Below, piece after piece: positions 4,439 through 64,000 of a DNA stretch of 64,000 nucleotides; the first letter of the stretch is position 1; each line of letters begins with the position of its first letter. Position numbers and translations under genes: made by a program. The notes beneath the pieces were generated by a model. It did no database searches. It was given only the letters and a program-made list of their open reading frames with translations, and was not told where the DNA came from. Source of the DNA: a phage. Location: assembly GCA_027337125.1 (NCBI GenBank), contig GCA_027337125.1_3057.1; one strand, given 5' to 3'.

Positions 4439-4930
4439 TTATTCCCAATAATCGAGAGCGAGAGTTACTTCAAAGGTTTGGATTTCATTGTTTGAATCCC
4501 AATCTAACTGAAGTTCACCCACGTTAGTAGGCCACAGGCCTTTAATTTCGACTTCTTTTGTTACAGTTTTAGCGTCACGAGCATATTGGCGTACAATAGC
4601 ACTCTTTTTATACTCTGCTGGTTTTCCACCAGTAATTTCGTTTCCTTGCCCAGCAGCAATGCTTTGCCAGTCAACAAACTTCTGGCGTGCATCATGCGCC
4701 TCATCATTCATTACTGTAATAGTCCAGTCATCGAATGTACGATCGCCTGCTACGTTAATTTTACGGTTCATAAATCCGACTGGAATTTTTTCTACAATAC
4801 CAGCTGGTAAAGCAGTGGCTTTACATTGAAACGTAAAATTTTGTCCAAGATAAGAAATTTCTACTTGGAATAAGTTAGGTCGAGCAAAATCACCAGATTC
4901 AAACGCTCGTGTTACATCATCTACAAACAT
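4439..4930 (-). CDS. 19: Tail tube protein gp19
   Basis: 163 aa, same length as T4 gp19; synteny between 18 and 20. Confidence 0.94.
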   Translation of the reverse strand: MFVDDVTRAFESGDFARPNLFQVEISYLGQNFTFQCKATALPAGIVEKIPVGFMNRKINVAGDRTFDDWTITVMNDEAHDARQKFVDWQSIAAGQGNEITGGKPAEYKKSAIVRQYARDAKTVTKEVEIKGLWPTNVGELQLDWDSNNEIQTFEVTLALDYWE

Positions 4931-4944
4931 ATTAGCCTCTGTAG

Positions 4945-4952
4945 TATTTATA
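4945..4952 (-). promoter_or_regulatory. Late promoter TATAAATA proximal to gene 19
   Basis: Plus tatttata 15 nt upstream of the gp19 ATG with a GAGG RBS between. Confidence 0.45.
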
Positions 4953-5003
4953 TCCCTATGTTTAACCTAGGGCATATAGAATTAAAGAATTAAGGATATA
5001 GTG

Positions 5004-5011
5004 TATTTATA
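5004..5011 (-). promoter_or_regulatory. Second late promoter TATAAATA, directly after the HNH-gene hairpin
   Basis: Plus tatttata at 5004-5011 adjacent to hairpin 5013-5030. Confidence 0.4.
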
Positions 5012-5012
5012 T

Positions 5013-5030
5013 GGCCTGCCGAAACAGGCC
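5013..5030 (-). terminator. GC hairpin (ggcctg-ccgaaa-caggcc) just downstream of the HNH ORF stop
   Basis: Perfect 6-bp stem read directly; no strong U-run on the minus strand, so may be a stabiliser/processing hairpin rather than a terminator. Confidence 0.35.
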
Positions 5031-5037
5031 TTTAGAA

Positions 5038-5676
5038 TCATTCTAGTAAATCCCAAAGATCTACGCTATTTCTTTTTGACTTTTCTCGGTTAGATTCCCA
5101 AGTGATTATTTCTAAATTTTTTACGCTTGCTATAATTTCCGGTGGAATTAAATTATCAAATCCATATTTGATAGATACTTTATGATCGAGTTGGTAAGCA
5201 CCTTCTACACCACACACTCCTATTTTATCAGCATTCGGCCATTTTGACCAAATTTTTCTTATTTTAGCTGACTTAGTTATAGAATGAACTCTACTAGCAT
5301 ATAATGCAAACTCTTTTCTTTTACCAGTCCATCGAGGATGTTTATCGCCTCTTTGCCATGGTCTGCTTATTCCAGATTGAACTTCCGAATTTTTAATAGC
5401 AACTTGTTTAATGCTACATTTTCTACATGCGTGGGTGGGTGTTCTATTTAAAAGCTGAATGCTTCTACTAAATTTAACACCACACAAATCGCATTTAGCG
5501 TCAACTATTTTATTACTATTCTTTGGCATTAATTCTATTGGAACAGATATTGTATCATGATATGATACTTTATATCCCAGAATTGTCGACCACATTTTTG
5601 AATGATTTCTTGGTTTTATTGTAACAAACTTAGAAATAATCACTTGTTTCCTCGATAATAGGGGCCGAAGCCCCAT
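5038..5676 (-). CDS. Free-standing HNH homing endonuclease (N-terminal Cys-rich zinc-finger-like region, C-terminal HNH)
   Basis: C-terminus AYQLDHKVSIKYGFDN...NLEIITWESNREKSKRN is HNH-like; N-terminal CDLCGVKF...HACRKCS; track ORF starts at TTG 5682, first ATG is codon 3 (5676), inside hairpin 5661-5674. Confidence 0.75.
   Translation of the reverse strand: MGLRPLLSRKQVIISKFVTIKPRNHSKMWSTILGYKVSYHDTISVPIELMPKNSNKIVDAKCDLCGVKFSRSIQLLNRTPTHACRKCSIKQVAIKNSEVQSGISRPWQRGDKHPRWTGKRKEFALYASRVHSITKSAKIRKIWSKWPNADKIGVCGVEGAYQLDHKVSIKYGFDNLIPPEIIASVKNLEIITWESNREKSKRNSVDLWDLLE
5661..5674 (-). other. GC hairpin (ggggcc-ga-ggcccc core) after the gene 18 stop, overlapping the HNH start codon
   Basis: Inverted repeat ggggccgaagcccc read directly; encodes codons MGLRP of the HNH ORF. 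Confidence 0.45.
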
Positions 5677-54919: not shown

Positions 54920-55921
54920 ATGACTCGTAACGAATATATCAAATCATTCAACAGCGTTATTGATGATAAAGCTATACCGATGTTTGGCCAAAATAGCGTT
55001 ATTTCTATTATCAATCAATGGCTCAATAGCGTTGACGCAAGTATTGTTTCTTCTGTTAAATTTATTCATGAAATTCGTAAAATTTCTAGCCGTGTAGATA
55101 AAGATGTTATCAAGAAAACCTTTAAAGAGTCTCGTCTTCTTTCATATTTGGTTAATCGGGATATTCTTGGTAATTTTGGGAAAGAAATTAAACGAACCAA
55201 AGATGTAGTAGGATATAATTGGTTCGGTGATGTTAATTCTTATCATCTTAATGTCAAAGAAGACCCCGAGAATATTTTTACTCGTCGTTGGATTAGTAAT
55301 TTCAGACTTTTCAAAGGACAGATTCTAAAATCAGCTTCTAAATTATGTTATGGTGATTATCGTCAAATTCATCCTTTGGCTTCTGATATGATTATCGTAA
55401 AAGAATATGAGCTTGATAAAAATAAAGTAGCTATTTTTGTGAATTATGAATTTTTTACACCAGAAACTAATCAAAAGAATATTAATAAATTTTTCTCAAT
55501 TGCTAGCACTATAACTCGTCAATTAGAAACCGCATTACTTTGTATGGAAACGGTAGAAAATATTCATACTTATCCTTTTAAGAATATGTGCGGTTGGGAA
55601 GGATATAAAATTGTAGTTAGTCTTCGTGAAGTGAAATGTGCTTATTCACCGACTGATAAAGAAATTTACCAACAAAAATGTGATGAAATTGTGAATACTC
55701 CTAAAGAAGAAACCACCCTTGAGGAACTAATGGATAATCTTAATGATTCGCCTGAACCAGTAGAAATTCGTCCAGAAGTTATTGCACTAGAAAAAGCTTA
55801 TAAAGAAGCTCTAGAAATTTCTAATAAAGCACAGAAAGAATATGTGCAGGCTAAAAGGATTTGGGAAGAATCTGTTAATCGCCTGGATCGTCTTGAACAA
55901 GCTTTACAGTTAATTAAGTAA
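54920..55921 (+). CDS. Hypothetical protein with C-terminal coiled coil
   Basis: Start set at Met 11 of the track ORF (GAGGAG RBS; the upstream ATG lies inside the promoter -10); 333 aa. Confidence 0.7.
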   Translation: MTRNEYIKSFNSVIDDKAIPMFGQNSVISIINQWLNSVDASIVSSVKFIHEIRKISSRVDKDVIKKTFKESRLLSYLVNRDILGNFGKEIKRTKDVVGYNWFGDVNSYHLNVKEDPENIFTRRWISNFRLFKGQILKSASKLCYGDYRQIHPLASDMIIVKEYELDKNKVAIFVNYEFFTPETNQKNINKFFSIASTITRQLETALLCMETVENIHTYPFKNMCGWEGYKIVVSLREVKCAYSPTDKEIYQQKCDEIVNTPKEETTLEELMDNLNDSPEPVEIRPEVIALEKAYKEALEISNKAQKEYVQAKRIWEESVNRLDRLEQALQLIK

Positions 55922-55973
55922 TTTAAAGCCAAGGATGGCTCGGAGCATAAATCATTAACCAAGTGAGAAGAAA

Positions 55974-56216
55974 ATGACCAAGCGTAAAGAATATATGGAG
56001 ATTGCTGAAAAGGCAGTCCGTGAATTAGCAATAGCGTATTATAATGAACACGGTAAATTTCCTGATAGATACAGCGTGCTTAAATCTGCTTTAACTCGTT
56101 CATATAAAAATATGCTATCAGAAGTAAGTGATATTATATACAAACATAAAGAACAAACAGGTCAAAGTCTTGATTACGACGAGACTTTTAAACAAGTACT
56201 AGGAATTAAGGAATAA
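55974..56216 (+). CDS. Hypothetical protein
   Basis: 80-aa ORF just upstream of nrdC. Confidence 0.6.
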
Positions 56217-56217
56217 T

Positions 56218-56481
56218 ATGTTTAAAGTATATGGTTATGATAGCAACATCCACAAATGTGTGTATTGCGATAATGCAAAACGTCTCTTGACTGTGAAGAA
56301 ACAGCCGTTTGAATTTATCAACATTATGCCGGAAAAAGGTGTTTTTGATGATGAGAAAATTGCTGAGCTTCTGACGAAACTAGGTCGTGATACTCAAATC
56401 GGATTGACGATGCCTCAGGTATTTGCTCCTGATGGAAGTCATATTGGTGGATTTGACCAATTGCGGGAATACTTTAAATGA
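56218..56481 (+). CDS. nrdC: Glutaredoxin (T4 thioredoxin) NrdC
   Basis: 87 aa, MFKVYGYDSNIHKCVYCDNAKRLLTVKKQPFEFINIMPEKG..., CVYC active site. Confidence 0.95.
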   Translation: MFKVYGYDSNIHKCVYCDNAKRLLTVKKQPFEFINIMPEKGVFDDEKIAELLTKLGRDTQIGLTMPQVFAPDGSHIGGFDQLREYFK

Positions 56482-56693
56482 TGCTCGAAGGAACTGATTA
56501 TATCCATGACTACCGCGGAAGCGCGGTATATGTGGGTGATGAGGTTGCAGTTTATTATGGTTATGGAACTTTGATGACAGCAAAGGTTATTCAAATTAAA
56601 AATGGCCGCGCTAAACTCGAAGTTTATTATTCTAATGGTGAAAAGTCTATTTCTAAATGGAAATACGGCGATTGTATCGTCAAATTGGGGTAA
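56478..56693 (+). CDS. Hypothetical protein
   Basis: 71-aa ORF, ATGA overlap with nrdC. Confidence 0.55.
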   Translation: MMLEGTDYIHDYRGSAVYVGDEVAVYYGYGTLMTAKVIQIKNGRAKLEVYYSNGEKSISKWKYGDCIVKLG

Positions 56694-56695
56694 AT

Positions 56696-56866
56696 ATGAT
56701 TTACGATATTAGTGTATCAAGAACTCCGTCAATGGTTACTATTCCAGCTGAAGAATTAGATCGTCTTCAGAAAATTGAAGAGCTTCTTTGGGAAATTGAA
56801 TCTGATTTGCCATCAGGATTAGAATCCTGGATTGATTATGAAGAACTTAATAAATTGCGAAATTAA
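56696..56866 (+). CDS. Small acidic hypothetical protein
   Basis: Start set at Met 14 of the track ORF, RBS GGGG; 56 aa. Confidence 0.5.
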   Translation: MIYDISVSRTPSMVTIPAEELDRLQKIEELLWEIESDLPSGLESWIDYEELNKLRN

Positions 56867-56876
56867 GTGGTGACAA

Positions 56877-57197
56877 ATGACTATTGAAAATAAATTAGAT
56901 GTTGATGCAGTTCTGAGTGAAATCATCGAAGACCATGATGCATTTTCAGAAAACTATGATTTCGATTTTTCCGATTATCTTAAACCTGTCGAAATAGAAG
57001 ACTGGGTGCAAGATGGTAAATGCCAATATCGTCAGTGTGTTTATTTTAGCCCAAAACATAATGTACATGTTTCCGTAAATGAATGCCGTTCAGGTTCTTA
57101 TCATTCTGACTGGTATTATGCAGTTCCGACTGTTGAATTAGTCGAGCCCCGTGAACGTGTAGTAACCCAGACAGTACGAGAATGGATTACGCTATAA
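56877..57197 (+). CDS. Hypothetical Cys-containing acidic protein
   Basis: 106 aa; four Cys (CQYRQC...C) could bind metal. Confidence 0.6.
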   Translation: MTIENKLDVDAVLSEIIEDHDAFSENYDFDFSDYLKPVEIEDWVQDGKCQYRQCVYFSPKHNVHVSVNECRSGSYHSDWYYAVPTVELVEPRERVVTQTVREWITL

Positions 57198-57320
57198 AAC
57201 CCTGGTGGGCGGCTAGATGGGAAACTGTAGAGCCAGAGCCGGAAGAACCGGTTTACACTGATGAAGAAACAGTATATAATGAACCAACGATAAACGACTT
57301 AATTGATATGGAGATGGGAT

Positions 57321-57704
57321 ATGATTGCAGTAGATAAGTGGTTTAGAATTAATCGTGCTGATATAGGGTTGTGTAATTACTGGCCGGAACTTAGTGCAGG
57401 TATTGTCTTTAAAGTTCGTGAACTTGTAAAAGAATGTGAAGATGACATAGAACCTGATATTGGAATTATTGAAATTGAACTTTCTGATGGAAAGATTATT
57501 AACATCTACGATAAGCCAATTACCTATTGGTGCTTGTGGAATACTGAATCAGTAGAAAATGGCGAAATTGAAGAAGTTGTAGAACGAGCTGATCAAGCTC
57601 TTCATAAACCTAAAGCCGCTTTTCAAGGTGAACGCATTTCATACGCATTAGCTAAATTAGCTGCACAAGAAAATAACGATGGTTATGAAGGAAATTTGAT
57701 GTAA
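57321..57704 (+). CDS. Hypothetical acidic protein
   Basis: Start set at Met 7 of the TTG-initiated track ORF, RBS GGAG; 127 aa. Confidence 0.6.
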   Translation: MIAVDKWFRINRADIGLCNYWPELSAGIVFKVRELVKECEDDIEPDIGIIEIELSDGKIINIYDKPITYWCLWNTESVENGEIEEVVERADQALHKPKAAFQGERISYALAKLAAQENNDGYEGNLM

Positions 57705-57816
57705 GCTGCGGCAGAATATATTGAATGGCTTGAAACTCAAATTTCTTTTTCTGACCGAGCGTTTTAATACTTGAAAATAATAAATACCCTTATCTATTCA
57801 AGGTAAGGGTTTTATT

Positions 57817-58290
57817 ATGTTATTGACTGGCAAATTATATAAAGAAGAAAAACAGAAATTTTATGATGCACAAAACGGTAAATGCTTAATTTGCCAACGA
57901 GAATTAAATCCTGATGTTCAAGCTAATCACCTTGACCATGACCATGAATTAAATGGACCGAAAGCTGGAAAGGTACGTGGGTTGCTTTGTAATCTCTGTA
58001 ATGCGGCAGAAGGTCAAATGAAACATAAATTTAATCGTTCTGGCTTAAAAGGACAAGGCGTTGATTATCTTGAATGGTTAGAAAATTTACTTACTTATTT
58101 AAAATCCGATTACACCCAAAATAATATTCACCCTAACTTTGTTGGAGATAAATCAAAGGAATTTTCTCGTTTAGGAAAAGAGGAAATGATGGCCGAGATG
58201 CTTCAAAGAGGATTTGAATATAATGAATCTGACACCAAAACACAGTTAATAGCTTCATTTAAGAAGCAGCTTAGAAAGAGTTTAAAATGA
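57817..58290 (+). CDS. 49: Endonuclease VII (Holliday junction resolvase) gp49
   Basis: 157 aa; MLLTGKLYKEEKQKFYDAQNGKCLICQRELNPDVQANHLDHDHELNGPKAG...; zinc-binding Cys plus H-N-H-like core. Confidence 0.95.
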   Translation: MLLTGKLYKEEKQKFYDAQNGKCLICQRELNPDVQANHLDHDHELNGPKAGKVRGLLCNLCNAAEGQMKHKFNRSGLKGQGVDYLEWLENLLTYLKSDYTQNNIHPNFVGDKSKEFSRLGKEEMMAEMLQRGFEYNESDTKTQLIASFKKQLRKSLK

Positions 58291-59108
58291 ATGTAGTATA
58301 TAAACTATCATTTGTTAATAGAATTAATGCTAAAACCCCGCCATATTATTACATTGGAAGTAAAACTAATTGCACTTTTGATGGAACGAATATTATTGAT
58401 AAAAATGGTAAATTTTATTATTCGTCTTCGTCATCTTCTGAATTTCAAAACGCTCTATTGAAAGAAACGCCGAAAGTTGAAATATTATATTTTCAATTAG
58501 TCGGAGATGAACAAATAACTAGCATTGAAGCTGAATTTCAAAAGAATGTAGAAAAAGATGTATGGAATAAAGAGTATTTTAATTTAGCATATGCTGATGG
58601 CCAATTTACGACATATGGTATTTCTCCTTCTAAAGAAACTAGAGAAAAGCAATCAATAACCATGATTAAAAGAAATCGTAATAAAGGCAAAAATCATGGA
58701 TTTTATGGAAAGCATCATACTAATTTAGCCAGAAAGAAAATATCAGAAGCTTCTAAAAAATACTGGAAAGAAAATCCACATCGTGGATTTTCGCATACAA
58801 AGGAAGCTAAAATTAAAATTGGAATTTCATCTTCTATCAGGCATAAAGGAAGTGGAAATCCGATGTATGGTGTAAAACCTTGGAAAACTCCGAGAGCAAT
58901 TAAATCTGGTACTTGTATATTATGGTTAAAATACGCAGAAATTTTATATGATTATTTAGGTCCAGATTTTAAAAGTAAATCATCTGTTTTTGTGGATTTA
59001 AACTTACCGAAATTTAGAATTGATAATTTCATCAAAAGGTTTAAAATGGGTTGGAACCCATATTTAGACGAAGAATTTCAAAAGGATAAATTAGAATTAT
59101 GTCTTTAG
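58287..59108 (+). CDS. GIY-YIG-type homing endonuclease (free-standing) between gene 49 and nrdD
   Basis: VYKLSFVNRINAKTPPYYYIGSK (GIY-YIG-like) plus C-terminal repeated basic modules (KGKNHGFYGKHHT, KGSGNPMYGVKPW); ATGA overlap with gene 49 and 10-nt overlap with nrdD. Confidence 0.75.
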   Translation: MNVVYKLSFVNRINAKTPPYYYIGSKTNCTFDGTNIIDKNGKFYYSSSSSSEFQNALLKETPKVEILYFQLVGDEQITSIEAEFQKNVEKDVWNKEYFNLAYADGQFTTYGISPSKETREKQSITMIKRNRNKGKNHGFYGKHHTNLARKKISEASKKYWKENPHRGFSHTKEAKIKIGISSSIRHKGSGNPMYGVKPWKTPRAIKSGTCILWLKYAEILYDYLGPDFKSKSSVFVDLNLPKFRIDNFIKRFKMGWNPYLDEEFQKDKLELCL

Positions 59109-60916
59109 AGAAAGATGTTTTAAATTTTATTTCAAATAAAGATAAAGAATTAAATACCGAAAATGCCAACAAAGATTCTCGTGTCTTTCCAACAAAAAGA
59201 GATTTAATGGCCGGTATTGTTTCTAAACATATCGCTTGTAGTATTCTTCCAAGCCATATTGTAAATGCTCATAATGCCGGGTTAATTCATTTTCATGATT
59301 TAGATTACAGTATATCATTGCCTTTTACTAATTGTTGTTTAGTAGATTTAAAAGGAATGCTTGAGAACGGATTTAAGCTTGGTAATGCACAGATTGAAAC
59401 TCCTAAATCAATCGGTGTTGCTACTGCAATTATGGCACAAATTACTGCACAGGTTGCTTCCCATCAATACGGCGGAACGACTTTTGCTAATGTAGATAAA
59501 GTACTTTCTCCTTATGTTAAACGCACCTATGCAAAACATATTGAGGATGCAGAAAAATGGCAAATCGCTGATGCGTTAAATTATGCTCAATCTAAAACAG
59601 AAAAAGACGTATACGATGCATTCCAAGCTTATGAATATGAAGTAAATACTCTCTTTAGTTCAAACGGACAAACGCCTTTTGTAACAATTACATTTGGTAC
59701 GGGAACTGACTGGACTGAACGAATGATTCAGAAAGCAATTCTGAAAAATCGTATTAAAGGTCTTGGTCGTGATGGGATAACTCCTATTTTCCCTAAGCTT
59801 GTTATGTTTGTTGAAGAAGGTGTTAATCTTTATAAAGACGATCCGAACTATGATATTAAGCAGCTTGCTTTAGAGTGTGCAAGCAAAAGGATGTATCCTG
59901 ATATTATTTCAGCTAAGAACAATAAAGCTATCACTGGTTCATCTGTTCCTGTTTCTCCAATGGGTTGTCGTAGTTTCTTGAGCATATGGAAAGATTCGAC
60001 TGGCAATGAAATTCTTGATGGACGTAATAATCTCGGTGTTGTAACACTGAATCTTCCTCGTATTGCGTTAGATTCTTATATTGGAACACAGTTCAATGAA
60101 CAGAAATTTACTGAATTATTCAATGAACGAATGGATTTGTGTTTTGAAGCTTTGATGTGTAGAATTAGTTCCTTAAAAGGAGTTAAAGCGACTGTTGCTC
60201 CTATTCTTTACCAAGAAGGCGCATTCGGGGTTCGTCTTAAACCTGATGACGACATAATTGAGTTATTTAAAAACGGTAGAAGTTCAGTGTCTTTAGGATA
60301 CATTGGTATTCACGAATTGAATATTCTTGTCGGTCGTGATATTGGACGAGAAATTTTAACTAAAATGAATGCTCATCTTAAACAGTGGACTGAAAGAACC
60401 GGATTTGCTTTTAGTTTATATTCGACTCCTGCTGAAAACCTTTGTTATCGCTTCTGTAAACTTGATACAGAGAAATATGGAAGTGTAAAAGATGTTACCG
60501 ATAAAGGCTGGTACACTAACAGTTTCCATGTTTCAGTAGAAGAAAATATTACTCCGTTTGAAAAGATTTCTCGTGAAGCTCCATATCATTTCATTGCGAC
60601 AGGTGGTCACATTTCTTATGTTGAACTTCCTGATATGAAAAATAACTTAAAAGGTCTTGAGGCCGTGTGGGATTATGCCGCACAACATTTAGATTATTTT
60701 GGTGTTAATATGCCAGTAGATAAATGTTTTACATGTGGAAGTACCCATGAAATGACTCCTACTGAAAACGGATTTGTTTGTTCTATTTGCGGAGAAACTG
60801 ATCCTAAAAAGATGAACACAATAAGAAGAACGTGTGGTTATTTGGGAAATCCGAACGAACGCGGATTTAATCTCGGTAAAAATAAAGAAATCATGCATAG
60901 GGTTAAACACCAATGA
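59099..60916 (+). CDS. nrdD: Anaerobic ribonucleoside-triphosphate reductase NrdD (glycyl radical enzyme)
   Basis: 605 aa uninterrupted; C-terminal zinc ribbon CFTCGS...CSICGE and glycyl radical motif RRTCGYLG. Confidence 0.95.
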   Translation: MSLEKDVLNFISNKDKELNTENANKDSRVFPTKRDLMAGIVSKHIACSILPSHIVNAHNAGLIHFHDLDYSISLPFTNCCLVDLKGMLENGFKLGNAQIETPKSIGVATAIMAQITAQVASHQYGGTTFANVDKVLSPYVKRTYAKHIEDAEKWQIADALNYAQSKTEKDVYDAFQAYEYEVNTLFSSNGQTPFVTITFGTGTDWTERMIQKAILKNRIKGLGRDGITPIFPKLVMFVEEGVNLYKDDPNYDIKQLALECASKRMYPDIISAKNNKAITGSSVPVSPMGCRSFLSIWKDSTGNEILDGRNNLGVVTLNLPRIALDSYIGTQFNEQKFTELFNERMDLCFEALMCRISSLKGVKATVAPILYQEGAFGVRLKPDDDIIELFKNGRSSVSLGYIGIHELNILVGRDIGREILTKMNAHLKQWTERTGFAFSLYSTPAENLCYRFCKLDTEKYGSVKDVTDKGWYTNSFHVSVEENITPFEKISREAPYHFIATGGHISYVELPDMKNNLKGLEAVWDYAAQHLDYFGVNMPVDKCFTCGSTHEMTPTENGFVCSICGETDPKKMNTIRRTCGYLGNPNERGFNLGKNKEIMHRVKHQ

Positions 60917-61752
60917 ATTATGATAGATTTTATCCTTGCGATTTTGTGAATGATAAATTATCTTTAATATTTGAAGAAAATAATGATTTACTATTGTCAT
61001 ATGTTGATTTGATAACAAAAAATTATAATAATCCTAAAATAAAAGGAAAAACGGAAGCACATCACGTGCTTCCCAAATCTATATTTCCTGAATATAAAAC
61101 AGATAAATGGAATATTGTTAATTTGTCATATTATGACCACGCGTTAGCTCATTACTATTTAGCTAAAACAAGTAATAGTAAAATGTGTTATGCCTTTCAT
61201 AGAATGATAAACTCGAATACCGATAGATTTAATACAAATGAATTGGATGAAATTCTTAAATTGTATTCCAGCGAAAAGGAATTATTTCACCGCTCTATGT
61301 CAAAATTATCGAAAAATATATGGAAGGATGACGATTTTAGAAAAAGACATAGAGAACTAACTAAGTTAGCAATGCAAAAACCTGAAGTTAGAAATAAAAC
61401 TTTATTAAATTTGTCAAATGCAATGAAAACTGATGAAGTTAGAAATAAAATTTCCAGGCTAACTAAGTTAGCAATGCAAAAACCTGAAGTAAAAGAAAAA
61501 CATAGAAATTCATTGAAGTTGGCGTATGCAAATCCTGAGGTTATGAAAAGGAAACATCAGCGTCTTCGAGAAAAATATACTCTTAATTTATTTGGCGCAT
61601 ATAAAGATGGTGTTCTTTTAAAAACATTTAATTATATACCAGACGCAGCAAAATATTTTAATATTTCTAGCAAAGGAAATATTTTAAAATGTTTAAATGG
61701 CGAACGTAAAAGTGTTGAAGGCTATAATTGGAAATATATAAATGAATTATGA
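60913..61752 (+). CDS. mobC: Mob-family HNH homing endonuclease between nrdD and nrdG
   Basis: HNH core TEAHHVLPKS...NLSYYDHALAHYYL; N-terminus MNYDRFYPCDFVND copies the nrdG start; internal 32-bp perfect direct repeat. Confidence 0.85.
   Translation: MNYDRFYPCDFVNDKLSLIFEENNDLLLSYVDLITKNYNNPKIKGKTEAHHVLPKSIFPEYKTDKWNIVNLSYYDHALAHYYLAKTSNSKMCYAFHRMINSNTDRFNTNELDEILKLYSSEKELFHRSMSKLSKNIWKDDDFRKRHRELTKLAMQKPEVRNKTLLNLSNAMKTDEVRNKISRLTKLAMQKPEVKEKHRNSLKLAYANPEVMKRKHQRLREKYTLNLFGAYKDGVLLKTFNYIPDAAKYFNISSKGNILKCLNGERKSVEGYNWKYINEL
61357..61490 (+). repeat. Perfect 32-bp direct repeat (two copies, 102 bp apart, in frame) inside mobC
   Basis: ctaactaagttagcaatgcaaaaacctgaagt at 61357-61388 and 61459-61490, each encoding LTKLAMQKPEV. 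Confidence 0.85.
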
Positions 61753-62212
61753 CAGAATATACCCGTGCTGCTTCGTGAATGGCCCTGGATGCAGGACCGT
61801 TCTTTTCGTTACAGGTTGTTTGCATAAATGTGAAGGGTGTTATAATAAATCAACATGGAATGCTAGAAATGGTATTCCATTCACTGGTGAAACACTAGAA
61901 CAATTGATTGAATGTTTGAATAATGATTATATAGAAGGATTAACTATAACCGGAGGTGACCCTCTTTATCCTGATAACAGAGACGTGATTCACTCTGTGG
62001 TTCAAACTATTAAAAATCTTTATCCCAATAAAAGCATTTGGTTGTGGACAGGATATAAGTTTGAAGATATTAAACAACTAGAAATGCTTAAATATGTTGA
62101 TGTTATTATTGATGGGAAGTATGAGAAAAATCTTCCGACCAAAAAGCTGTGGCGAGGTTCAGATAATCAGCGACTTTGGTCAAATACCGATGGGGTGTGG
62201 AAACATGATTAA
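61742..62212 (+). CDS. nrdG: Anaerobic ribonucleotide reductase activating protein NrdG (radical SAM)
   Basis: MNYDRIYPCCFVNGPGCRTVLFVTGCLHKCEGCYNKSTW: NrdG N-terminal signature and CxxxCxxC cluster. Confidence 0.93.
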   Translation: MNYDRIYPCCFVNGPGCRTVLFVTGCLHKCEGCYNKSTWNARNGIPFTGETLEQLIECLNNDYIEGLTITGGDPLYPDNRDVIHSVVQTIKNLYPNKSIWLWTGYKFEDIKQLEMLKYVDVIIDGKYEKNLPTKKLWRGSDNQRLWSNTDGVWKHD

Positions 62213-62326
62213 ATTGAATTATATTATGGACACTATAAATGATATGATTTTTCATTTTGGTCCAGAATTTTATTCGCAATATAGTTTAGTGCTTATCAAT
62301 GCTTGGTTAATCAATTAAGGGTAAAT

Positions 62327-62539
62327 ATGTATAAATTTCGTAAAGGTTTAGCTGATTTTCTTACAACCGTAACGTTCTTTTTGTTTATGGCAGTTGGTGC
62401 TATTTTTCTTATTCCTTTTATTGCTATATTTTTCGTGATTAGTTTGATTTCTCCAGAAAAAGGACTGTCTTCTAGCGAATTCAATGAGCGTCTGGATAAA
62501 ATTACTAACAAGCTGAATGCTGCTCTTAGTAAGGAATAG
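62327..62539 (+). CDS. Small membrane protein
   Basis: Start set at Met 9 of the track ORF; FLTTVTFFLFMAVGAIFLIPFIAIFFVISLI hydrophobic core. Confidence 0.55.
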   Translation: MYKFRKGLADFLTTVTFFLFMAVGAIFLIPFIAIFFVISLISPEKGLSSSEFNERLDKITNKLNAALSKE

Positions 62540-62541
62540 TT

Positions 62542-62850
62542 GTGAAACAAAACAAGATTGAAGTCTATGGAATTCCAGATGAAGTAGGTCGTTGTCCTGG
62601 ATGTCAATCAGTTACAAAACTTCTAAAGGAGCTCAATGCTCCTTTTACTTTCTATAAAGTTCTTACAAATAATGGTAAGATTGAGTATGATCGTCCACTG
62701 ATTGTATCTCTTGCTAAACGAGCTGGATTCACATCTCTTAACATTCGTTATCCAGTCATTTTCATCAATGATTCTAGACAAAAGAACATTAAACACTTCA
62801 AAGAAACTCTCATTTCACTTGGATATGATAGAGATATCATAGAAGACTAA
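62542..62850 (+). CDS. Thioredoxin-fold redoxin (NrdH/glutaredoxin-like, CPGC motif)
   Basis: 102 aa, GTG start with AAGGA RBS; VYGIPDEVGRCPGCQS; directly downstream of nrdG. Confidence 0.7.
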   Translation: MKQNKIEVYGIPDEVGRCPGCQSVTKLLKELNAPFTFYKVLTNNGKIEYDRPLIVSLAKRAGFTSLNIRYPVIFINDSRQKNIKHFKETLISLGYDRDIIED

Positions 62851-62854
62851 GACG

Positions 62855-62875
62855 GGCCCTCTGGGCCTTTCTTTC
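62855..62875 (+). terminator. Intrinsic terminator (ggccc-tct-gggcc + U-rich)
   Basis: Hairpin then tttctttct. Confidence 0.6.
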
Positions 62876-62946
62876 TCGCATTCTGTATATTACCATTCTA
62901 AGCTATCGTTCCCTTCTTATCATTCCCTAAAAATTTTCACAAAGTT

Positions 62947-62976
62947 GTTTACAAGAAGTTCAAACTGTGGTATTAT
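62947..62976 (+). promoter_or_regulatory. T4-type early promoter
   Basis: ttttcacaaagttgtttaca upstream cassette, 18-nt spacer, -10 tattat. Confidence 0.55.
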
Positions 62977-63006
62977 TGACATATGAATTGCCTTTGAGGA
63001 ATTGAT

Positions 63007-63189
63007 ATGGTTGTGGTTGATAAAGAAATTAAAAAGGGACAATATTATCTTATTAATGGTAATGTTGTTCGTGTTACTTATGTAAACGGTTTTGAAGTTT
63101 ATTATCTTATACTTAAGTTAAATAAACAGATGATTTGTGACCGTGCTGTATTTAGTTCAGTTGCTAAGGAAATTAAACTCCATGGGTAA
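63007..63189 (+). CDS. Small hypothetical protein
   Basis: 60 aa, GAGGAA RBS. Confidence 0.5.
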   Translation: MVVVDKEIKKGQYYLINGNVVRVTYVNGFEVYYLILKLNKQMICDRAVFSSVAKEIKLHG

Positions 63190-63475
63190 AACGTATCGTC
63201 GTAAAGACTTGAAAGTTCGTGATTATGACTATTTCGGAAAGCGTAAAGCTCCTGATGGCGTAAGTCATAAAGATATGGTTGAAAACATTTTTCGCTCAGA
63301 TAAATGGCGTAGAATGAAAGGCATTGATTCAGAAGTTAAAGATGAGCTAAATCGCCAATTACGTGGTGAAGTAAGAAAGTTGAAAAAATCAGTTTACATT
63401 GATGATGATTTTGATTATAATACTTCTCAACGAGTTGCTAAACGTAAATCAAACGAGTGCTATCGTTACAGCTGA
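63182..63475 (+). CDS. Small basic hypothetical protein
   Basis: Start set at Met 16 of the track ORF; MGKTYRRKDLKVRDYDYFGKRK..., very Lys/Arg-rich (possible nucleic-acid binder). Confidence 0.55.
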   Translation: MGKTYRRKDLKVRDYDYFGKRKAPDGVSHKDMVENIFRSDKWRRMKGIDSEVKDELNRQLRGEVRKLKKSVYIDDDFDYNTSQRVAKRKSNECYRYS

Positions 63476-63482
63476 GGAAAAT

Positions 63483-63614
63483 ATGAATATCAAACGCATG
63501 CTTTTTAAACAAGGATTATACACTTTAAATGTTACTCCAAAAGGTGATACAACTAAGTGGTCAGTAAATGACTGGATTAAATTTATTGATGAAAACGGTA
63601 ACTGGAAAATTTAA
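63483..63614 (+). CDS. Small hypothetical protein (43 aa)
   Basis: Start set at Met 29 of the track ORF, GAGGAAAATATG RBS. Confidence 0.45.
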   Translation: MNIKRMLFKQGLYTLNVTPKGDTTKWSVNDWIKFIDENGNWKI

Positions 63615-63815
63615 ATGAATCCTGAATCTAAATTATCGCAACGAATTGCTGAAGCTCGTCGCCAGTTCTTTGAAAATATGATAGCCCAAGGTATTGATGA
63701 CGAAGTTTTTCTGAACTGGTTTTGGAATCACAAATATTCAAGTTGCTCAGGAGCAATATTAATATCAGCCGCAATGATGTACGAAGGCTGGAAGGGCGCC
63801 AAAAAGTTTAGCTAA
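63615..63815 (+). CDS. Small hypothetical protein
   Basis: 66-aa ORF followed by a terminator. Confidence 0.55.
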   Translation: MNPESKLSQRIAEARRQFFENMIAQGIDDEVFLNWFWNHKYSSCSGAILISAAMMYEGWKGAKKFS

Positions 63816-63832
63816 GGGCTTCGGCCCTTTTT
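63816..63832 (+). terminator. Intrinsic terminator (gggc-ttcg-gccc + U5)
   Basis: Hairpin gggcttcggccc then ttttt. Confidence 0.7.
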
Positions 63833-63867
63833 GGATAATAAAATTTTAACGTAATTGGGAATAATGT

Positions 63868-64000
63868 ATGACTATTCAAATTAAAAACGCCATTAATTCT
63901 TATGCATATGATAAAGTAGTTTCTTTGCTAGAAAAAGGCGATATTGTAACTCCTCAAATTTTGGATAACTGGGAAAAAGAGCTTCATCAGACGATGAAAC
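63868..64000 (+). CDS. Hypothetical protein, 5' part (continues beyond window end)
   Basis: ATG at 63868 with GGGA RBS; open through the window end (MTIQIKNAINSYAYDKVVSLLEKGD...). Confidence 0.5.
   Translation, partial: MTIQIKNAINSYAYDKVVSLLEKGDIVTPQILDNWEKELHQTMK

Follow-up and report, generated by a model that had tools for sequence, protein, structure and literature searches.

A putative free-standing Seg-type homing endonuclease gene between gene 49 and nrdD of T4-like phages, a probable case of intronless homing

SegG, encoded between genes 32 and 59 with gene 32 as its target, and SegF, encoded between soc and gene 56 with gene 56 as its target, are the founding cases of intronless homing, both in phage T4. 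Sandegren, Nord and Sjoberg are said to have found in 2005 that a further GIY-YIG gene, SegH, replaces mobC between nrdD and nrdG. Free-standing endonucleases of T4 cut genes adjacent to their own (SegF, gene 56; SegG, gene 32; SegE, uvsW), and flanking sequence is co-converted with all three of these (PMC2988022). The 49/nrdD junction, with which we are concerned here, is absent from the 15 T4 endonuclease genes in Table 1 of that source (PMC2988022). Groupings of homing endonuclease genes (HEGs) known as HEG islands are known from the T5orf172 and IPA-HNH families of ICP1-like phages (PMC10448857).

The DNA analyzed was a 64,000-nt stretch from a phage (hereafter, the window), in which all of the features below lie on the + strand. 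Gene 49 (endonuclease VII; 57817..58290; Pfam Endonuclease_7 and Endonuc-dimeris) encodes a protein 100% identical to T4 gp49. It is followed by an ORF for a 273-aa GIY-YIG protein (58287..59108), here called seg, and then by nrdD (59099..60916), which encodes the large subunit of the anaerobic ribonucleotide reductase as a single, uninterrupted ORF of 605 codons. The ATG of seg overlaps the TGA of gene 49 (ATGA), and the 3′ end of seg overlaps the start of nrdD by 10 nt (59099-59108). An earlier note on this DNA had described both the continuous nrdD and the inserted ORF with its 10-nt overlap, and both descriptions held, the nrdD product covering the Pfam NRDD model from end to end (1-562 of 562, E 7.6e-171). 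A Pfam search also found the glycyl-radical domain in this product, which is 99.5% identical to T4 NrdD over residues 181-605 as against 83.8% over residues 1-179. The statement in the same note that the GIY-YIG gene is the only endonuclease nearby was mistaken, since an HNH/mob-like ORF of 279 aa (60913..61752) lies directly downstream of nrdD in the slot of T4 mobC, ahead of the activase gene nrdG (61742..62212; Pfam Fer4_12 and Radical_SAM). As read from the sequence, nrdD has an AAGGA Shine-Dalgarno sequence at 59082-59086. A sigma-70-like promoter match (59020..59047; TTGATA, 16-nt spacer, TAAAAT) occurs upstream of nrdD in the 3′ end of seg; it is a consensus match only (10/12), and such matches are no more numerous in the region than shuffled sequence would lead one to expect. 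No T4 late promoter (TATAAATA) was found in or near seg when positions 57000-62000 were searched.

Comparisons of the predicted protein suggest that seg is a free-standing Seg-type GIY-YIG homing endonuclease gene, and we infer endonuclease activity for its product. The N-terminus has the GIY-YIG catalytic fold, a tblastn alignment of the first 126 aa with T4 SegG gave 40.6% identity (E 4e-18), and the protein matches PHROG 7504 'homing endonuclease' at 7.6e-35. The catalytic domain (approximately aa 1-105) is followed by DNA-binding repeats of the NUMOD3 type (approximately aa 130-195; Pfam NUMOD3 match at 6.5e-07) and then by a helical C-terminal domain. The motif residues are V-V-Y5, Y22-I23-G24, E81 and N99, the last four being at least 90% conserved among 30 homologues. 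The spacing from GIY to YIG is 16 aa, where 10-11 is usual, and no counterpart of Arg27, the catalytic arginine of I-TevI, was identified in the seg protein. TIGR01453 'group I intron endonuclease' scored 22.6 bits, short of its cut-off of 56, and the Pfam GIY-YIG model gave no match to the seg protein even at E ≤ 10. I-TevII, used as a control, also fails the generic GIY-YIG model and has only a sub-threshold match to SegE_GIY-YIG, so the Pfam miss of the seg protein says little. Among the homologues, P0002 is located at the same 49/nrdD site and has the C-terminal region in common with seg, and P0003 is located at the gp5/5.1 site and has the catalytic domain alone in common with it; the other location of P0003 fits a specificity of the seg protein that would be set by its C-terminal domain.

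The seg gene was found in 50 of 851 T4-like phage records, with every copy at the 49/nrdD junction. In seg-less phages, the ATG at which seg starts is the start of nrdD; at the shared ATGA, the left junction is precise to a single base. To the right, the first 225 nt of nrdD (59099..59323 in the window) form a recoded, variant 5′ end that is co-inherited with seg: in seg+ alleles these nucleotides are 28-43% diverged from seg-less alleles, as against 5-7% downstream. When six seg+ and eight seg− alleles were compared, 73 of 73 fixed differences fell within nt 1-225; gene 49 and nrdD nt 226-1818 had none. Past nt 225, the seg+ alleles form mosaics without fixed markers in common. Of the 50 records with the variant block, 49 carry seg as well. 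Neither a seg-less phage with a similar NrdD N-terminus nor a donor of the variant 5′ end was found, the next best seg-less match being 64.5% identical (protein). In phage OLB35, seg is deleted in frame and the variant nrdD allele is kept, and this phage is a seg-deleted derivative. A more distant T4-like contig, L053, has a seg homologue 57-65% identical to that of the window, also between gene 49 and nrdD, and its NrdD is 67% identical; the L053 NrdD N-terminus matches the window variant at 47 of 76 residues versus 41 of 76 for T4 and is thus marginally closer to the former.

The nrdD gene of T4 is split by a 1033-nt intron carrying I-TevII, in agreement with the earlier note on the split of this gene by an endonuclease-bearing group I intron. 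The note had also predicted that a covariance-model search of the present nrdD for a group I intron would be negative, which proved correct: no Rfam family, whether group I intron or other structured RNA, was detected at E ≤ 1 in positions 55000-64000, and the same library detected the group I introns of the T4, fPS-2 and G8 nrdD loci at 105 bits. With no Rfam match, a continuous nrdD and these positive controls, we rejected the possibility that seg is an intron-encoded endonuclease of the I-TevII type. By alignment to T4, the empty intron site is at 59636..59637, after nrdD nt 538 and 313 nt past the end of the seg-linked block. It is the same empty-site allele as in all other intron-less phages compared; intron-bearing alleles have seven differing positions between −2 and +20 around the site. 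At least two phages, fPS-2 and G8, have both seg and the I-TevII-bearing intron, which does not support the idea of seg as a stand-in for the intron. Nor did we find a collaborative pair, in which the target of a free-standing enzyme would hold an intron lacking an endonuclease gene; the window is intron-free, and the intron of its relatives carries I-TevII. In phage FL18, nrdD is deleted outright.

We consider it likely that seg is a Seg-type homing endonuclease gene that has been spreading among T4-like phages by intronless homing. The earlier note had proposed an endonuclease acting on nrdD from outside, by either intronless or collaborative homing; the polymorphism at a fixed site, the linked block, OLB35 and the distant homologue favor the first of these, whereas the occurrence of seg both with and without the intron speaks against the second. 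During a mixed infection, the Seg enzyme would break both strands of a seg-less genome at the 5′ end of nrdD or close to it, and the break would be resected and then repaired from the seg+ genome, with gene 49 and the conserved part of nrdD (from nt 226 or so) providing the left and right homology arms, respectively. The cassette copied would be about 1.03 kb long (58291 to ~59323) and would comprise the seg ORF and the recoded first 225 nt of nrdD. The recoded block would probably remove or weaken the enzyme's own target, and its divergence of ~35% would prevent it from recombining away from seg, so that both stay linked. Expression of seg seems parasitic on the 49-nrdD operon, with seg taking the nrdD ATG that is coupled to the gene 49 stop codon and nrdD being given a new start and Shine-Dalgarno sequence within the 3′ end of seg. 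We predict that seg-less alleles hold the endonuclease target in the stretch corresponding to the variant 59099..59323, unless that variant came in as flanking sequence of the donor; gene layout, family assignment, polymorphism and linkage are observed, and the cut position and the immunity of the variant allele are what we infer.

The diverged block could, in fact, simply be carried-over flanking sequence and not an immunity allele. It is less likely, though a fair possibility, that the Seg enzyme is active on a target outside the block, either in gene 49 or in conserved nrdD just past nt 225, and that the block is flanking DNA of the donor lineage. Homing endonucleases usually recognize conserved sequence, and the end of the block coincides exactly with the start of a highly conserved stretch of nrdD (PFTNCCLVDLKG...). 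The cut made by a Seg enzyme is also often hundreds of bp distant from the gene encoding it, and certain phage endonucleases of the free-standing kind, including SegH and Hef, cut their own, HEG+ genome as well. Should the seg enzyme do the same, the divergence would not locate its target, and gene 49 stays a possible target despite having no fixed differences, since HEG+ DNA may be cut too. The N-terminal counts for L053 are likewise compatible with a foreign origin of the block. Against this, the perfect linkage and the fixed differences that all lie beside seg are the pattern expected of, though not proof of, a target-site immunity allele.

We regard it as unlikely that seg is a resident relic, inactive or domesticated, that no longer homes and is kept for the nrdD signals embedded in it or for some other role. 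The start region of nrdD and the sigma-70-like promoter match do lie inside its 3′ end, and embedded signals that favor retention are known for seg and mob genes of T4 (PMC2988022). Several copies have also decayed: that of FL18 is truncated, those of Pu-Krd-SF3 and SF4 are 823 nt long and match aa 1-266 only (90.6%), and the L053 homologue is frameshifted. The window copy itself has about seven amino-acid changes relative to other copies. However, the pN/pS of the seg ORF is 0.04-0.34 in six copies, indicating purifying selection that acts on the protein and not merely on embedded signals, and the conserved residues of the catalytic domain are intact. Retention is not forced, since OLB35 shows that seg can be deleted with nrdD left intact, and the presence of copies 96-98% identical across several host-range groups argues for recent spread.

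Least probable of all, to the point that we give it little credence, is homing in trans, by which seg would cut near the intron site, or its break would co-convert the intron 540 nt downstream, the two forming a functional pair and the intron-less window being a recipient or intermediate: MobE provides a precedent by mobilizing the nrdB intron in trans (PMC2790892; PMC2988022), and seg accompanies the intron in fPS-2 and G8 and, as longer matches suggest, in several other phages, but it is also found without the intron, the seg-linked block stops 313 nt short of the intron site, the seg+ alleles past that block are mosaic with no common fixed markers, and the nrdD intron, which the window lacks, has an active-type endonuclease gene of its own.

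The ORF downstream of nrdD (60913-61752) matches PHROG 655 (3.1e-36) and PHROG 12434 'HNH' (5.4e-15), and its product gave no match to the Pfam HNH models. It is 32% identical to T4 MobD and 38% identical to T4 MobC over 60 aa that include the HH...N...H motif; with no more than this 38% over 60 aa, mobC itself was rejected. At ≥95% the ORF was found in 22 records, and in most relatives the slot is empty or holds another gene. On the basis of its motif, its slot and its presence/absence polymorphism, we assign it as a putative HNH (Mob-type) free-standing homing endonuclease gene. Junction alignment showed that the ORF begins with what was originally the 5′ end of nrdG (40 nt, 60913-60952), and that the first 40 nt of the present nrdG (61742-61781) are a recoded duplicate differing at 9 of 40 positions. 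These observations suggest that the HNH gene is inserted 40 nt into nrdG and that the duplicated, recoded 5′ end restores nrdG. A bolder and, in our view, improbable reading is that the two unrelated endonuclease genes bracketing nrdD act jointly as an HEG island that replaces the whole nrdD allele between phages, intron gain and loss included. If this were true, Seg breaks at the 5′ end of nrdD and HNH breaks at the 5′ end of nrdG would drive the replacement, the same breaks would occasionally delete nrdD as in FL18, and the recoded 5′ ends of nrdD and nrdG would be obligatory immunity modules.

Among the papers searched, none described a seg gene at 49/nrdD. The gene is a new member of a well-known kind, and the locus leaves the current understanding of how such elements work unchanged. 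Its value lies in adding a natural and well-delimited instance, ordinary though clean, of probable intronless homing at a nucleotide-metabolism gene. The limits of the cassette are unusually clean, the left junction being exact and the right limit falling at nrdD nt 225, and public genomes hold all of the stages: sites that are empty or occupied, a variant allele kept after loss of the gene, and decayed copies. The 49-nrdD-nrdG segment of T4-like phages has three independent endonuclease insertion sites, the third of which accommodates at least three different genes, and this bears on the mosaicism of T4-like genomes and on marker exclusion in crosses.

Of the systems already described, SegG and SegF are the closest. 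Like them, seg is a free-standing GIY-YIG gene that has the orientation of the two conserved genes around it, lacks an obvious promoter of its own, overlaps its neighbors and is co-inherited with flanking sequence of the predicted target gene; its catalytic domain is 40% identical to that of SegG. It differs from both in its insertion site and in its C-terminal DNA-binding region, and its target is one predicted from sequence. I-TevII has the same host gene as seg, nrdD, and comes from the same catalytic superfamily; unlike I-TevII, which is intron-encoded after nrdD nt 538, seg is free-standing and not an I-TevII relative, and the two can coexist in one phage. SegH resembles seg as a free-standing GIY-YIG gene adjoining nrdD in T4-related phages but lies on the other side of nrdD. 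Pu-Krd-SF5 and fPS-2 have a GIY-YIG gene in the nrdD/nrdG slot that we take to be SegH, and it has no significant similarity to the window seg outside the NUMOD3 repeats. SegH, with its reported place in the mobC slot across nrdD and this unrelated slot gene, was thus rejected as the identity of seg. The HNH gene shares with T4 MobC the slot, the HNH motif and a beginning made of nrdG-derived codons (MNYDR(I/F)Y), yet it belongs to a mob-type lineage different from MobC and MobD. Finally, the HEG islands of Barth et al. (2023; PMC10448857) resemble the present locus, where two unrelated homing endonuclease genes at boundaries of sequence exchange flank a conserved nucleotide-metabolism gene; unlike in those islands, the flanking genes here are Seg- and Mob-type, and transfer of the whole of nrdD as a unit would be hypothetical.

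The region derives from a Tequatrovirus (T4-like) phage, and matches Escherichia phage TadeuszReichstein best, with 97.6% identity over 95% of window positions 57500-62400. On the + strand, gene 49, which encodes endonuclease VII (57817-58290), is followed by a 273-codon ORF encoding a predicted Seg-type GIY-YIG endonuclease (58287-59108; hereafter seg), nrdD (59099-60916), a 279-codon HNH/mob-like homing endonuclease ORF (60913-61752) and nrdG (61742-62212). The T4 order is gene 49, nrdD, mobC and nrdG, and a group I intron of 1033 nt that carries I-TevII interrupts nrdD. The start of seg shares an ATGA with the gene 49 stop, and its last 10 nt lie within nrdD. In the window nrdD is a single 605-codon ORF; its match to the Pfam NRDD model is full-length, and the glycyl-radical domain is present. 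The earlier note was largely right in describing a continuous nrdD, preceded by a GIY-YIG gene that overlaps its start, where T4 has an endonuclease-bearing intron; its statement that this was the only endonuclease nearby was wrong, the HNH gene having been overlooked. Among database records, only TadeuszReichstein has the same combination as the window: this seg, the HNH gene and nrdD without an intron. Farther upstream, the GC content of 56950-57400 was 0.42-0.43 versus about 0.30-0.35 nearby, a rise that covers two small ORFs (56877-57197 and 57182-57337) preceding a pin-like ORF.

The 126 N-terminal residues of seg were 40.6% identical to T4 SegG (E 4e-18), and seg matched PHROG 7504 'homing endonuclease' at 7.6e-35. 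Residues Y22, G24, E81 and N99, almost invariant in an alignment of 30 homologues, stand where GIY-YIG enzymes have YIG, Glu and Asn; no residue matching the catalytic Arg was identified in seg. Residues 1-100 had a pLDDT of about 90 in an AlphaFold model, and a PDB sequence search with seg returned nothing relevant. Pfam recognized the NUMOD3 motif alone in seg, a result that weighs little because the generic GIY-YIG model likewise misses I-TevII and a GIY-YIG gene that other phages carry at the mobC position. The pN/pS of six copies of the ORF was 0.04-0.34, consistent with continuing selection on the protein.

seg was present in 50 of the 851 phage records matching the region, every copy lying between gene 49 and nrdD with 96-98.5% identity. 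The left junction is exact: genomes with and without seg are identical up to ...GAGTTTAAAATGA, and one shared ATG starts nrdD in seg-less phages and seg in the carriers. Over nt 1-225 of nrdD (59099-59323), carrier alleles were 28-43% diverged from seg-less ones, whereas from nt 226 the two were indistinguishable, the 5-7% divergence being that found within the seg-less group. In a comparison of six carrier with eight seg-less alleles, all 73 fixed differences fell in nt 1-225 and none in nrdD nt 226-1818 or gene 49. Megablast with this variant block retrieved 50 records, 49 of them seg carriers, and the closest N-terminus of NrdD in any seg-less phage had 64.5% protein identity. Taken together, the divergence, the fixed differences and the linkage indicate that the unit of inheritance is a ~1.03-kb cassette, from 58291 to about 59323, comprising the seg ORF and the recoded 5' end of nrdD, and they are evidence that seg is, or recently was, mobile. 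Two exceptions are informative. Phage OLB35 (MH992122, 2480-2540; flagged UNVERIFIED in GenBank) is without seg, and its nrdD opens with the first 22 nt of seg, fused in frame to the variant nrdD allele; it is a derivative that lost seg while retaining the variant block. Phage FL18 (PP400780, 3001-4492) has a truncated seg (222 aa) with the mobC-slot GIY-YIG gene and nrdG directly behind it; nrdD is absent in its entirety, apparently through a deletion that joined the two endonuclease genes.

An Rfam scan of 55000-64000 at a permissive E<=1 gave no match, and since the same library scored the group I introns of the T4, fPS-2 and G8 loci at 105 bits, the absence of an intron from the window is a real negative. 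The T4-type intron interrupts nrdD after nt 538, a point between 59636 and 59637 of the window; in its surroundings the window did not differ from any of the intron-less alleles compared, and 59625-59660 (nrdD nt 527-562) is the empty-site allele. Intron-bearing T4, G8 and fPS-2 have in common seven substitutions from -2 to +20 of the insertion site, which may be exon markers acquired by co-conversion or may affect recognition by I-TevII. We rejected seg as a substitute for the intron or a collaborative partner of it: fPS-2 and G8 have both seg and the intron, the window, TadeuszReichstein and Pu-Krd-SF5 have seg and no intron, and the variant block ends 313 nt short of the intron insertion site. 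It follows that seg is an element in its own right, though the intron may occasionally be co-converted with it. Between the collaborative and intronless homing that the earlier note had offered, the comparative evidence backs the latter.

Intronless homing has been established for SegF, SegG and SegE (PMC2988022), and its classic form is the best-supported reading of seg. The enzyme would break a seg-less genome near the 49/nrdD junction, and repair off a carrier genome, with gene 49 and nrdD from nt 226 as homology arms, would copy the cassette into it. Most likely the variant block removes the enzyme's own site, and it would stay welded to seg because it is too diverged for internal recombination. 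Some free-standing phage endonucleases cut their own genomes as well, so the cut site could instead lie outside the block. Expression of seg looks parasitic on the operon: seg is translationally coupled to gene 49, and the new nrdD start has AAGGA 12 nt upstream. The best sigma-70-like match in the region, a consensus match only (TTGATA, 16-nt spacer, TAAAAT; 59020-59047, + strand), falls within the seg 3' end and 50 nt before nrdD starts; in the record of phage Lutter a promoter is annotated beneath the seg match.

The interval from gene 49 to nrdD also holds a seg homologue, 57-65% identical, in a T4-like but distant metagenomic contig (SRR27536177_201122, locus L053, 2352-3180; NrdD 67% identical). 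This homologue is frameshifted and spread over two reading frames, reflecting either a pseudogene or an assembly error, and an additional 55-aa ORF separates it from gene 49. Another homologue (P0003; locus L051, 4001-4822) has the N-terminal catalytic domain alone in common with seg and lies at a gp5/5.1-like junction, in the neighbourhood of T4 segC. Together the two homologues suggest that the choice of insertion site goes with the C-terminal DNA-binding region; P0003 also suggests an exchange of catalytic and DNA-binding modules in the lineage of seg.

At least three different genes occupy the nrdD/nrdG gap across phages: T4 mobC, the HNH gene of the window and a canonical Seg-type GIY-YIG gene (MHRYYIIYKITN...YIG...YMGSG). 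The last, probably the SegH reportedly described by Sandegren et al. in 2005, was found in Pu-Krd-SF5 (locus L047, 3710-4540) and fPS-2 (locus L048, about 4781-5604), where it overlaps nrdD and rewrites its final codons to give VKHA, not VKHQ; fPS-2 has three endonuclease genes around nrdD, namely seg, I-TevII and this one. The HNH ORF matched PHROG 655 (3.1e-36) and PHROG 12434 'HNH' (5.4e-15). Its first 40 nt are identical to those of nrdG where the slot is empty, and the nrdG that follows it opens with a recoded duplicate of them (61742-61781; 9 of 40 mismatched), the footprint of an insertion that entered the nrdG 5' end in frame.

T4 MobC, in the same slot, likewise opens with nrdG-derived codons (MNYDRIY), and the HH..N..H motifs of the two proteins align; otherwise their identity is just 38% over 60 aa. 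None of the 15 T4 endonuclease genes in Table 1 of PMC2988022 lies at the 49/nrdD site, our literature search found no paper describing a seg gene there, and dozens of GenBank records annotate it merely as 'homing endonuclease'. seg is an uncharacterised new member of a well-known kind, in the arrangement expected for free-standing Seg-type homing endonuclease genes.
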